A DNA stretch of 64,000 nt, from assembly GCA_000165345.1 (NCBI GenBank), contig CM000431.1:192001-256000 (forward strand), in the 5' to 3' direction. The notes beneath the pieces are model-generated. The model saw only the letters and a program-made list of their open reading frames with translations, searched no databases and was not told the origin of the DNA. How positions within the stretch are numbered: position 1 is the stretch's first letter; each line of letters starts with the position of its first letter. The position numbers were made by a program, and so were the translations under genes. Shown one piece after another: positions 44,001-50,000 of the stretch.

Positions 44001-47000
44001 CCTTATTGTTCAACTTATCCAAAAGGTTATTTTGCTTTCTGGTTAACTTATGATTCGATTACAAATAAGTACATTATTTCAGTTGAGAATAATACCAAGA
44101 AATTAGTAGAAATTGAGGCTGATATTACTAGTGATTCAGTATTTAATAAGATTATCCCAGTAATAGACACTAATGGAGGAGCAGGAGTTGACATTTCAAA
44201 GACTTTCAGTATTTGGCAATTGACAAATATTAAAGAAATTCCAATTGATACCGCTACTACCACTACTACAACAACAACAACAACAACTTCTACAACAACA
44301 ACAACAACAACAACAACAACAACAACTACTACTACTACTACTACTACTACAAGTACAACTTCCACAACAACAGAAAGACCATGGTATGAAATAGAATTGG
44401 ATGAATGTCCTTTAGAATTAAATAAACCATGTAGAGGAATTAATGGAAAATTAGATAAACCGTTTAATCATGGTAATTTATTATGGATTAATGGAACTTT
44501 AGGAAAAGATATTAATGGGAGATTATTATTAGATGATACAAATTTGATGGGATATGATATAATGAATGATAATAAAAAAATCATGACTTTATTATTAAAT
44601 GAAACATTTATTGGAGTTTATGATTTAACAAAAGATCAAGAATATTATTCATATTATACAAATGAAAGTTTAGCATATAATGGTATGGACTTTAAGATAG
44701 GAATAGGATGGAGTAAATTAGGATTATTTATTTTGAATGAATATTCAAGTAGTTTAATAGAAATTCAAACACATTCAGATTATAAATTTAATAAAGTATT
44801 ATTAAGAGGACCAACAATGGATAAATATGTGAATTATATATTATTAGATAATTTCTTATATCCAAATGGAATATTATATTTAGGATATGATACATGTACA
44901 TTTAATGGAGAATGTAATGTAAAATCTTTAGAATGTAGTTCTCAAGTATTAGAAGGATTATGTTTAAAAAAGTTACCAGGAATTACTTGGAAAATGGAGA
45001 CTATTTTAGCACAAACAAATGTAAATAATGGAACTTGGGGATTCGATTATTCTATTAATGGTTTAATAAATTTATATACATTAAATAATGGAATAGAGGA
45101 TGTATTGGTAATTTATTTCTTTAATAATAGAGTAGCTTTACAAGATTTAATAAATTCAAATTCTTGTTCTGGTCCTTATCCTGAGAATTCTCAAGTCAAT
45201 GTTGGTGATTTAATCAAATGGTCAATAGGAATAGATTCTTTAATGAATTTATATTTAAATATATTAGATGATAATGTAACAGGAAAGAATTATACTGTTT
45301 GTTATATAAAGAATTTGAATCAATTTGGTGGTGGATTTAAATATTTATCTCCATTAGGTTATAGACCAAATTATTCAAGATTTATTCAAGAAATATCACC
45401 AAAATTCCAAGATGGTGGTTATGAATCAACATCTAAACCTGATAATGGTTATTATTTCCCAGAAAAAGATGTAAATACTGGACAATATAATCCTGATGAT
45501 AAATATGGTGAAAATAGTTATCCATTTTTCCCACCAGGAGTTCAACCAGCTCCAATTGATGGAGATGAGAATAATACACCTCCAAATTATCATTATAATA
45601 CAACAACTGGCCAATTTGAGAAGAATGAAGATCATCCAAATCCTGATGAAATTAATCCATTCCAACCAAATCATATTGTTGATGGTATTTCAGAATGTGA
45701 TCTTTACTTATTCTCAACTTGTAATGCAACATCTACTAAATTTATGCCAGATGGTACTATATTTAAACAAGGTTGGACATTATTTGTAATGATTAATACA
45801 GGAGTTCCAGATTATGATCCAAATAATGTAAATAATAATTATAATTATAGATATGAATTTATTAGTAGTACTAATAGTAATACTGGTGGTGGTACATTAT
45901 CAGATAAATTAATATTATCATTGGAATATAATAATGAAACAGTTACATTTAGGAATGAAATAACAGGTGAGGAAGATGTTGTAGGTTCTCCACAATGTGG
46001 TCCATACTGTTCAACTTATCCAAAAGGTTATTTTGCTTTTTGGTTAACTTATGATTCAAAATATAATTACTTTATTATATCAGTCAATAGTAATAATGAT
46101 TATTTAACATCAATTTCAGCTGATAATACTGATATGATTTTTAATAAGATTATTCCAAGAGGAAATAACGTTAATAATAGTTATAATATTTGGCATTTAA
46201 ATAGTCAGAATAGGTTGCCTGTTTCAATAGCTACTACTACTACTACCACAACGACTACTACAACTACGACGACGACTACTACGACAACAACGACAACTAC
46301 TACCACTACTACTACCACTACAACAACGACTACTACTACTACTACTACCACAACTAGTACTACTACCACTACTACAACTACTACCAGCACTACTACGACG
46401 ACGACTACTACGACAACAACGACAACTACTACCACTACGACTACTACAACTACCACCACAACAACTACTACGACAACTACTACTACCACAACCACTACTA
46501 CGACAACGACAACAACCACCACAACAACAACAACTACTACTACTACCACTACAACTACAACAACTACAACAACTACAACCACTACGACTACCACTACTAC
46601 AACAACTACTACTACCACCACTACTACGACAACGACAACAACCACCACTACAACAACAACTACTACTACAACCACCACTACTACAACAACAACTACTACC
46701 ACTACTACTACAACAACAACTACTACTACTACTACTACTACGACAACAACAACTACCACTACTACCACAACAACAACAACAACAACTACTACTACCACTA
46801 CTACTACTACAACCACCACAACAACTACTACGACAACAACAACTACCACCACTACTACAACCACAACCACTACGACTACTACAACCACCACAACTACTAC
46901 AACCACTACTACTACTACCACAACAACAACTACTACTACTACAACTACGACGACGACTACCACTACAACTACTACAACTACTACAACTACGACAACGACA

Positions 47001-50000
47001 ACAACCACCACAACAACAACTACTACTACTACTACAACCACCACTACTACGACGACGACTACTACGACAACAACCACCACTACAACAACAACTACTACGA
47101 CAACAACAACTACCACAACAACTACCACTACCACCACAACTACTACCACTACTACAACTACAACCACCACAACTACTACAACTACCACTACTACCACCAC
47201 TACTACAACCACAACCACTACGACTACTACAACTACTACAACCACTACCACTACTACAACCACTACCACTACTACTACCACTACCACTACCACTACCACC
47301 ACAACTACTACCAATCCTCCATGGGACCAGATAGTTCAAGATAATTGTGAATTAGAACCAAATAATCAACCATGTAAAGGTTTTAATTCAACTATCCCAT
47401 CAATAGTCAATCAAGGAAATCTCTTCTGGATTGATTCTAATATTGCTTATTATTCTCCTAAAAATTATAATATCCGAAAATTATACTTTACAGAAAATAA
47501 TAATCCAATTTCAAATGATGGTTATTATTGGATGGGATATAACTTCATGAAAGATAACGATCCTGTATTTACTCTTTTATTCAATGAAACTTATCTAACT
47601 ATTAAAGATTGGAAAGGGAAACAAGAATATTATTCACCTTATACTAATGAAAAACTTGCTTATAATAATATGAACTTTACTATAGGAATTGGATTAAGTA
47701 GATTAGGACTCTATTTAATGAATTCCAAATTACAAAGTTTAATACAAATTCAACCTCAATATGATTATTCATTTAATCATGTCAAACAATTATTATATGA
47801 TAATCAAGTTATTACTAATTATTTATTACAAGATGGTTTCCTTTATCCAAATACTCTTTTATATGAAGGATATGAAAAATGTTCATTATATAATAATTGT
47901 CTATCAAATAAATTAGAATGTAATTCTCAAGTTCTAACTGGTATTTGTTCAACTTTATCTCCTGGATTAAATTTAGAATTTGAAACAGAAATTAAATCAA
48001 CAAATCTTAATAATGGTACTTGGGGTGAAATATTTAAACAATCTGATTTATTAAATACTTATATTATTAGTTCCAATAATGAAGATCAATATATTATTTA
48101 TATATATTCCAATAGAATTGCTATTCAAGATTTAAATAATTATATTAGTTGTTCTGGTCCATATCCTAATGGTAATTTAATTCATATTGGATCTAAACTT
48201 ATTTGGAAAATTGGTTTTGATTCATATTATTCAATATATTTAAATGTATATGATCAAATAAATCATGAATATTATTCAATATGTCAACTTAAACCTGTTA
48301 TTCATCATATTACAAGTCTAGATCTTATTAATACTGCTATTACTACTACTACTAATAATAATAATAATAATAACAATAATAATAAAAATAATACAAGTAA
48401 TACCTTTGGAATAGATTCTATTGATTATATTTATACAAGAGGATATAATCCATCAAATACTAAATTTATTCAATATATTAATAATTTCCCAAGAGGTGGT
48501 TATAAATCTTCATCATCTTCAAATTCAAATCCAAATCTAGTCACTTCTTATTATTATCCTTATTTTGATAAATCTATCAATGAATTTAATCCATTATATA
48601 ATTATGGTAAAAATTATGCATTCTATCCACCTGGTATTAAACCTGCTCCTATTATTGGAAATTATCATACAACTCCTACAAATTATCATTATAATACAAC
48701 AACTGGCCAATTTGAGAAGAATGAAGATCATCCAAATCCTGATGAAATTAATCCATTCCAACCAAATCATATTGTTGATGGTATTTCAGAATGTGATCTT
48801 TATTTATTCTCAACTTGTAATGCAACTTCTGCAAAAATTATGCCAGAAGATACTATATTTAAACAAGATTGGACATTATTTGTAATAATTAGTACTGGTA
48901 TTCCTGAATATGATAATAATTCTAATAATATTGATCTTTATAATTATAAATATGACTTTGTTAATTTTGATAAAGATACTGGAAATGAAGAAATTATATT
49001 GTCTTTATTACTTAGAAATGAAACTGTTACTTTAAAAAATCATATTACTAATATAGAAAAAACTGTTGGTTCTCCACAATGTGGTCCTTATTGTTCAACT
49101 TATCCAAAAGGTTACTTTGCTTTCTGGTTAACTTATGATGAAGATAATGATCTTTATGAAATCTCTATTAACTCTAATACAGAAATTTTACTTAAATTAC
49201 CAGCTTCAAAACAAAAATTCAATAAAATAATTTCTAGATCCAGCTCTAATACTAATACCAACCCTAATCCAAATCCCAATAATACTACTTTCAATGTTTG
49301 GTATTTAACAAATGTTAAACAAACTCCTAAATCTATCTCTACTACTACTACTACCACAACAACTCCACCATGGGATAAAGTTGAAAAAGAAGTTTGTGAT
49401 CTTTCAGAAATATTTATGCCATGTCAAGGATATAATGCAACTATTGATCCATATATTAATCTTGGTGATTTAATTTCTATGAAATTTATTATTGAAAAAG
49501 AATGTAATTGTATTAATAAAATTAATCATCTTGGTAATAATTATTGGTTAGGATTTGATTTCAATCATAATGATGATAAAATCTTATCAATCTTCTTAAA
49601 TGAAAGCTTTATATTAATGTATGATTGGAAAAATCATCAAGAATATATATCTCCATTTACAAATGAATCACTTTCTTATGATCATATGGATCTTGAAATA
49701 TTAATAGGTTGGAGCCGACTTGGATTATTCTTAATGGATAATAATCATAATGGATTAATACATATACAAAATATACCAGATAATAAAATTAATAAAATTA
49801 AACAACATTCTAATGAACAAAAAACACTTATAAGATTTGAATTAATTAATAAACAATTCTTATATCCTAATGAAATTTTATATCAAGGTTATCATACTTG
49901 TTCATTCTATAATGATTGTTCTACTGAAATCATTTCTTGTTCAAGTCAAGCACTTATTGATACATGTAATAAACCACATCCTGGTATGAATTGGATTATT

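Follow-up and report, generated by a model that had tools for sequence, protein, structure and literature searches.

The described systems closest to the locus considered here are gp900 (cgd7_4020), a protein of the same organism, Cryptosporidium parvum, which has two polythreonine mucin-like domains and within which the Poly-T typing locus of Carraway et al. 1997 is said to lie, and gp60 (gp40/15, cgd6_1080), a secreted glycoprotein with a poly-Ser tract that serves for subtyping. The gp60 tract is tens of codons long, is readily handled by polymerase chain reaction (PCR) and Sanger sequencing, and is documented to vary between isolates. Here we describe a tract of 360 codons for threonine and serine at positions 46233-47312 of a 64,000-nucleotide stretch of DNA (the window; C. 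parvum IOWA II chromosome 3, CM000431.1, positions 192,001 to 256,000 of the forward strand, assembly GCA_000165345.1), which lies within the giant gene cgd3_720 and occupies positions 238,233-239,312 of the chromosome. The resemblance to the TCA/TCG/TCT array of gp60 is that both are coding trinucleotide arrays in which synonymous codons specify a hydroxy amino acid in a secreted and, in the case of cgd3_720, putative glycoprotein.

The tract has been visible since the genome was first annotated. The database entry for cgd3_720 reads 'very large probable mucin', and its product name (2004) quotes a 308-aa Thr repeat, which is the length of the pure Thr run found here and implies that the feature was noticed at that time; the thought that '308 aa' might denote a shorter allele, perhaps that of an 11,643-aa assembly, was rejected, as 308 is exactly the Thr run that follows the second Ser of the tract in the window. 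A polythreonine (Poly-T) repeat locus is also among the established PCR-restriction fragment length polymorphism markers of Cryptosporidium (PMC2928199), and the idea of a poly-Thr marker is likewise already known. As such, the tract is a curiosity rather than a discovery, and what is new in this work is the comparison with a 228-codon counterpart in C. hominis, the differences in length among C. parvum assemblies, the placement of a bin dense in insertions and deletions (INDELs) downstream of the tract, and the Cryptosporidium-specific modules, predicted to be galectin/LG-like, that surround it. Taken as a whole, we consider the tract, with a probability of roughly three in four, to be a translated, O-GalNAc-modified (O-linked N-acetylgalactosamine) extended spacer that evolves by expansion and contraction.

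The tract and its reading frame

The tract comprises 360 consecutive in-frame codons (ACT 160, ACA 100, ACC 65, ACG 33, AGT 1 and AGC 1) and contains no N. These encode 358 Thr and two Ser, the latter at codons 42 and 52, in the order 41 Thr, Ser, 9 Thr, Ser and 308 Thr, a composition that cannot be attributed to chance. A preliminary description of the window had spoken of an uninterrupted poly-Thr tract of about 360 codons; the Thr/Ser tract is indeed unbroken over that length, but the two Ser residues limit pure Thr to 308 residues, itself an extreme homopolymer. Tandem Repeats Finder reports a single array (46231-47311; period 3, 360.3 copies, 79% matches, score 762) and detected no period in the tract other than 3. 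By the open reading frame (ORF) list and its translation, the tract stands in the frame of one intronless ORF of 11,696 aa, 6,722 residues from its start, and divides the protein into an N-terminal region with eight modules and a remainder of six modules and a tail. The earlier reading of the tract as one in a series of inter-module poly-Thr linkers is in accord with this: the tract is coding, in frame and the largest of the series. Two ORFs on the minus strand (46205-47314 and 46224-47339) arise from the lack of stop codons in the ACN array and were set aside.

The identity of the ORF with cgd3_720, as the gene is called in PMC3305300 and in the supplement of PMC7193590, is well anchored. Four ORFs that flank it match the IOWA II proteins EAK89195, EAK89194, EAK89193 and EAK89191 of C. 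parvum without a difference, and those on either side (EAK89193.1 and EAK89191.1) confirm the position between cgd3_710 and cgd3_730. Primers published for cgd3_720 match the window at 55082 and 55512 and yield an amplicon of 431 bp, as stated for them, and both published single nucleotide polymorphism (SNP) reference bases fit the window as CM000431 192,001-256,000. The length of about 11,700 aa, the signal peptide and the 308-aa Thr repeat with which the gene is annotated all recur here, as 11,696 aa, an N-terminal hydrophobic segment and a run of 308.

Departures from the modal base of the tract fall on codon position 3 in 200 of 360 codons and on positions 1 and 2 together in only 2 of 720 (Fisher p = 8e-114), and both of the latter yield Ser. 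It is probable, as a part of the explanation favored above, that selection acts on the amino acid (Thr, rarely Ser) and not on the DNA. The same pattern bears on whether the tract is absent from the mature message, either as a spliced intron or as a gap between two genes, a reading that draws on annotations in which the gene is split or shortened (C. meleagridis 6,618 aa, C. hominis CHM 10,395 aa, and the fragmentary GY17 models). An intron would not be expected to leave the third position free with the first two fixed, none of the 360 codons is a stop or specifies anything but Thr or Ser, the length divides by three in both C. parvum and C. hominis, and the module downstream has neither a start codon nor a signal peptide of its own. 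We regard absence from the message as very improbable.

As to how the tract has grown, exact repeats dispersed within it reach 47 nt (50 nt in C. hominis), whereas 200 codon shuffles of it gave a mean of 29.6 nt and never more than 46, and adjacent identical codons are enriched (141 versus 112.8 +/- 8.1 in shuffles). The higher-order structure that had been described as visible in the array is therefore real insofar as dispersed repeats and homocodon adjacency exceed those of shuffled strings, but it does not extend to any regular periodicity beyond 3. A proneness to slippage like that of gp60 had also been proposed, and is half true: the four Thr codons are intermixed, the longest homocodon run is 7 units and the period-3 match is 79%, such that the tract does not consist of the pure or near-pure trinucleotide units of a gp60-like microsatellite. 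The expansion looks as much like the duplication of blocks of 8-16 codons as like single-codon slippage. We also observe that ACC and ACG make up 27% of the Thr codons of the tract in C. parvum and 29% in C. hominis, versus 8% in the rest of the gene and 4% for the short linkers, an excess in the giant tract that is significant (p about 1e-16 and 1e-11). Candidate causes are the supply of tRNA for 360 Thr residues in a row, selection against pure repeats and biased conversion.

Change between and within species

A contig of C. hominis 30976 (JTAI01000028.1) spans the same junction with 228 in-frame codons (1340-2023), which encode 226 Thr and two Ser, the Ser codon being TCA, and its flanks are 99% identical to those of C. 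parvum over 1.3 kb upstream and 0.9 kb downstream. The two codon strings have at most 35 consecutive nt in common (30.4 +/- 3.5 in shuffles), and their alignment z score is 1.8. Judged from these strings, the synonymous-codon pattern is no closer between the species than a shuffle would be, and the DNA has turned over completely. A position and an amino-acid composition that are kept in spite of such turnover are the mark of a translated low-complexity linker with expansion and contraction, and the tract evolves fast in length and sequence between species, with 228 codons at the same position and an unrelated synonymous pattern in C. hominis.

Two other C. hominis assemblies, UKH1 and TU502_2012, break in the tract: their contigs reach 72 and 48 codons into it from the 3' side, and their N-terminal fragments (6,837 and 6,833 aa) stop inside its 5' side. 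Such breaks, the general difficulty of assembling 1-kb low-complexity arrays, and the presence of 283 scattered N in another repeat of the same window (19550-20123) could be taken to indicate that the tract itself is over-expanded or mis-joined low-complexity sequence. On the other side, there is no N within the tract, the frame is kept across 1,080 nt with conserved modules on both sides, the product has the same length in three complete C. parvum sequences, a single C. hominis contig crosses the orthologous 228-codon tract, and the 308-residue run is the one already given in the product name of 2004. An assembly artefact seems, from these comparisons, largely refuted and is extremely improbable. 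For short-read assemblies, the tract is a fixed breakpoint, which is the probable reason for the fragmented or mis-modelled state of cgd3_720 in several Cryptosporidium genomes.

The contigs of C. hominis 30976 would lead one to expect a protein of about 11,560 aa, and the annotated orthologues of C. hominis CM098020.1 (10,395 aa) and C. meleagridis CM077709.1 (6,618 aa) both fall far short of this. The latter comes near to the 6,722 residues that lie ahead of the tract; module loss, a collapsed assembly and truncated gene models are candidate reasons. The orthologues of the gastric species, C. andersoni cand_033810 and C. muris CMU_037990, are 3,518-3,523 aa long, with two canonical modules and short Thr runs, which argues that the 14-module array and the giant linker are expansions of the intestinal lineage.

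Within C. parvum, the giant protein is 11,696 aa in the window, CP044420.1 and CP141120.1, and is 53 and 75 aa shorter in CP029782.1 (11,643 aa) and HLJ CM109963.1 (11,621 aa), respectively; that of C. tyzzeri is 11,496 aa. As the first 3,171 aa and the last 2,923 aa are of equal length in all C. parvum assemblies that could be read, the differences lie within window positions 35,580-52,388, a central 16.8 kb that holds the tract and seven other linkers. Wang et al. 2022 (PMC9317183) observed an especially high INDEL density at 240-245 kb of chromosome 3, mapped to IOWA II, which corresponds to window positions 48,001-53,000, downstream of the tract; a placement of the tract inside this bin, reached by way of CP044420.1 coordinates, was rejected once primers and SNPs had fixed the IOWA II coordinates. 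Furthermore, the calls in that work derive from short reads filtered at a mapping quality >= 30 (PMC9317183), by which the tract would not be resolved. The bin holds an (AAT)n / poly-Asn insert (48353-48393) in the module after the tract, and also linkers 9 and 10.

These data bear on the suggestion that the tract is an isolate-level hypervariable marker, the length of which changes often enough to separate isolates, like the poly-Ser of gp60. The spread of protein lengths among C. parvum and C. tyzzeri, the confinement of the C. parvum differences to an interval that includes the tract, and the breaking of short-read assemblies within it all speak in its favor. Against it, the same interval also has seven other linkers and the INDEL-dense bin, which excludes the tract; total length is identical in three IOWA-type sequences; three C. 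hominis isolates agree in every one of the 3' 48-72 codons; and the longest pure repeat has only 7 units. On balance we hold the marker role to be tentative, at somewhat below even odds. In the last 8.7 kb of the gene, the short linkers are identical between two C. parvum assemblies, and the linkers that differ between species are only those with runs of 10 or more residues. A further Thr run, inserted within module 12 at 55221-55250 and not between modules, varies with species and isolate: C. parvum has 10 residues, C. tyzzeri has 16, and isolates of C. hominis have 13 or 14.

The surrounding protein, its putative glycosylation and its expression

A profile built from 13 aligned modules finds three degenerate N-terminal copies, 14 full copies and one C-terminal half copy along the protein, which begins with a predicted signal peptide and closes, after these copies, with an acidic tail (Table 1). 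A Kyte-Doolittle scan finds one segment above 1.6, at residues 4-22, and no transmembrane segment beyond this N-terminal stretch; by hydropathy and inspection, the N-terminus resembles a signal peptide, and the protein would be expected to enter the secretory pathway. The Thr/Ser runs that follow the 14 modules are 5, 7, 12, 25, 15, 12+5, 39, 360, 9, 9, 8, 8, 8 and 23+7 residues long, close to the lengths listed in the preliminary description, and the border motifs noted there recur as well, with W607, L609 and P616 nearly invariant before the linkers and P3 and W4 invariant after them. Apart from the tract, the longest linker is of 39 residues.

Table 1. Features of cgd3_720 in the window (T/S, Thr/Ser residues).
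Feature	Position	Strand	Description
Intronless ORF, 11,696 aa, cgd3_720, C. parvum IOWA II chromosome 3	26067..61157	+	ORF list, translation, module profile
Predicted signal peptide MIMTKWVYNVFLILFFQAFLVVLAS	26067..26141	+	Sole hydrophobic segment of the protein; cleavage position by eye
Array of 14 full modules, about 610-675 aa, 12-14 Cys each	31014..58880	+	Three beta-sandwich domains predicted per module
Linker 1, T5	32829..32843	+	Translation
Linker 2, T7	34668..34688	+	Translation
Linker 3, 12 T/S	36561..36596	+	Translation
Linker 4, 25 T/S (C. hominis 30976: 20)	38463..38537	+	
Linker 5, 15 T/S	40398..40442	+	Translation
Linker 6, T10-ST-ASTE-STTTT; far shorter in C. hominis 30976	42294..42356	+	
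Linker 7, 39 T/S	44256..44372	+	
Eighth full module, directly upstream of the tract, ending ...NSYNIWHLNSQNRLPVSIA	44373..46232	+	Profile, translation
Tract, eighth inter-module linker	46233..47312	+	360 codons; position kept in C. hominis (JTAI01000028.1, 1340-2023)
Longest pure Thr run, 308 residues	46389..47312	+	Codon string; the '308 aa long' repeat of the database product name
Module directly downstream of the tract, starting NPPWDQIVQDNC	47313..49337	+	Profile, translation
Linker 9, 9 T/S	49338..49364	+	Translation
Linker 10, 9 T/S	51216..51242	+	Translation
Linker 11, 8 T/S	53136..53159	+	Translation
Linker 12, 8 T/S	54993..55016	+	Translation
Linker 13, 8 T/S	57000..57023	+	Translation
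Linker 14, 23 T/S + PGLDN + 7 T/S; first run 20 in C. hominis, 24 in C. tyzzeri	58884..58988	+	

At the level of structure prediction, each module is made up of three galectin/LG-like beta-sandwiches, a galectin-type fold. No Pfam family matches the modules at E <= 1, and the best profile match in a PDB sequence search (E = 0.85) is neither a galectin nor significant, which accounts for the protein not being filed as a galectin. The residues by which galectins bind beta-galactosides are H-N-R and W-G-x-E-x-R; an invariant N..TWG motif (N219, T221, W222, G223), which falls in the second beta-sandwich of the module, is similar to the W-G-x-E portion of this signature and sits in a low-confidence loop of the module model (44373-46232). 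Searched against 1.84 billion representative proteins, the module profile returned 10 matches; the eight that were looked up and two more found earlier all belong to Cryptosporidium (C. hominis, C. canis, C. bovis and C. andersoni, with C. muris in the C. andersoni cluster). Modules 7 and 8, when used as queries, gave only partial fragments from C. hominis and C. canis, and a JGI metagenome scan for the 3' flank of the tract gave no match. By these searches the module family appears to be specific to Cryptosporidium. The C-terminal thirds of modules 2, 3, 4 and 6 (34689-44255) are mutually 82-93% identical, versus 36-65% for the full modules, an indication of recent duplication or of gene conversion inside the array; this similarity is also likely to cause contigs to break.

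We postulate that the tract is a translated mucin-type poly-Thr linker in a secreted, Cryptosporidium-specific giant protein, which itself is a string of at least 14 Cys-containing modules, each predicted to form three galectin/LG-like beta-sandwiches, joined by Thr runs of which the eighth has grown to 360 residues. On this reading, the DNA of the tract turns over by expansion, contraction and block duplication under selection at the amino-acid level, and as such its length and codon pattern are species-specific. The coding frame, position and composition of the tract, the retention of that position and the turnover from one species to the other are shown here, as are the secretory signal and, as a prediction, the fold of the modules, whereas glycosylation, extension and the function as a spacer are inferred. 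In the secretory pathway, the run would most likely receive single O-GalNAc residues, and the decorated run may form a stiff, protease-resistant, extended segment of about 90-137 nm. This contour estimate follows from an extension of 0.25-0.38 nm per residue, and the stalk of more than 100 nm that had been proposed earlier is consistent with only the upper part of the range. The mucin-type reading agrees both with the existing annotation and with published mass spectrometry of C. parvum O-GalNAc, in which the transferases of the organism densely modify consecutive Ser or Thr runs on Gp40 and Gp20, the gp60 arrays included (PMC5549699); five candidate GalNAc transferases are described in C. parvum (PMC9713705). 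Of the traits of a Ser/Thr-rich mucin domain, the tract has the residues (360 of 360 are Thr or Ser), but it lacks both Pro and any repeat unit longer than one codon.

Several observations weigh against this explanation. A gp900 peptide with consecutive Thr was lightly modified (PMC5549699), and dense occupancy of the tract is therefore not guaranteed. The O-glycans of C. parvum are single neutral sugars (N-acetylhexosamine, HexNAc; PMC9713705), and as such stiffness figures from metazoan mucins may not transfer. The case for glycosylation of cgd3_720 is, moreover, one of precedent from other C. parvum proteins. On the genomic side, the 228-codon length in C. hominis 30976 comes from an assembly that may be collapsed, and the UKH1 and TU502_2012 contigs break within the tract. 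Last, the orthologues of the gastric species get by with short linkers, which argues that a very long spacer is not essential to the family.

The cgd3_720 transcript is absent at 2-24 h and peaks at 48 h with 93% of its signal (PMC3305300), and is listed as over-represented in oocysts (supplement of PMC7193590). The surrounding protein is, in other words, a Cryptosporidium-only array of predicted lectin-like domains that is switched on late in development. A second wave of female-stage expression includes mucins, in a review that does not name cgd3_720 (PMC13657310), and there is no cgd3_720 entry in an oocyst-wall proteomics supplement (PMC12548878); no use of a newer gene ID for cgd3_720 was found in the literature. 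A role in the oocyst is at this time a lead and not a finding.

Such a role would suit a further proposal, that of the preliminary description, by which the function resides in the great length of linker 8, a stalk projecting over more than 100 nm to keep the distal six modules apart from the proximal eight; it might, for example, cross the oocyst wall or act as a tether. Late, sexual-stage-like expression and the over-representation of the transcript in oocysts would fit; the contour estimate reaches the required range; hundreds of codons are kept at the same junction (360 in C. parvum, 228 or more in C. hominis) despite the turnover of sequence; and no other linker exceeds 39 residues. However, lengths that differ by more than a third between sister species are not tightly set, the C. 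muris and C. andersoni orthologues have short Thr runs only, and retention could equally come from a mutational bias to expansion once the run is long. We consider selection for length unlikely. It is still more speculative, and in our estimation improbable, that cgd3_720 is a self-associating lectin-mucin hybrid of female stages, with some 40 galectin/LG-like domains that bind GalNAc (Tn) arrays on its own linkers and on other parasite mucins to build a glycoprotein meshwork or fibrillar tethers in the oocyst, the 360-residue segment then serving as a flexible tether of about 100 nm with a species-specific length.

A neighbouring repeat, and comparison with described systems

The window holds another coding repeat, in a neighbouring signal-peptide ORF (18063-21200, + strand, 1,045 aa), where positions 19290-20123 hold a poly-Pro / Pro-Ala-rich repeat of CCT type and, after it, the 283 scattered N mentioned above. 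Measured between flanking alignment blocks, this interval spans 762 nt in the window, and three further C. parvum assemblies have 795, 735 and 855 nt, with products of 1056, 1036 and 1076 aa, respectively; those of C. hominis are 994-998 aa and that of C. meleagridis 965 aa. Either this is another coding repeat of variable length, or it is a region seldom resolved in assemblies.

Among described systems, gp900 is also like cgd3_720 in that the gene lies in an INDEL-dense region (PMC9317183). It differs in being a micronemal type-I membrane protein of sporozoites with Cys-rich domains, whereas cgd3_720 has no transmembrane segment, carries 14 modules predicted to be galectin/LG-like, and is first transcribed at 48 h.

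The PTS (Pro/Thr/Ser) domains of metazoan mucins are likewise long, Ser/Thr-rich secreted segments that become extended upon O-GalNAc addition and evolve in repeat number. Unlike them, the cgd3_720 tract has no proline and no repeat unit above 3 nt, and is a linker between folded modules and not the bulk of the protein; the Cryptosporidium glycans, furthermore, are single neutral HexNAc only (PMC9713705). The modules invite comparison with tandem-repeat galectins and with laminin LG / neurexin LNS arrays, to which their sequence identity is 7-15%, with no Pfam match and no significant PDB match (E = 0.85), and the cgd3_720 family is confined to Cryptosporidium.

At 1.08 kb, the cgd3_720 tract breaks short-read assemblies, in contrast to the short array of gp60; as with gp60, its codon string is in principle readable as a barcode. 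Given that this string is fully different between C. parvum and C. hominis, long-read amplicons could turn it into an information-rich lineage barcode, if variation within species is demonstrated.

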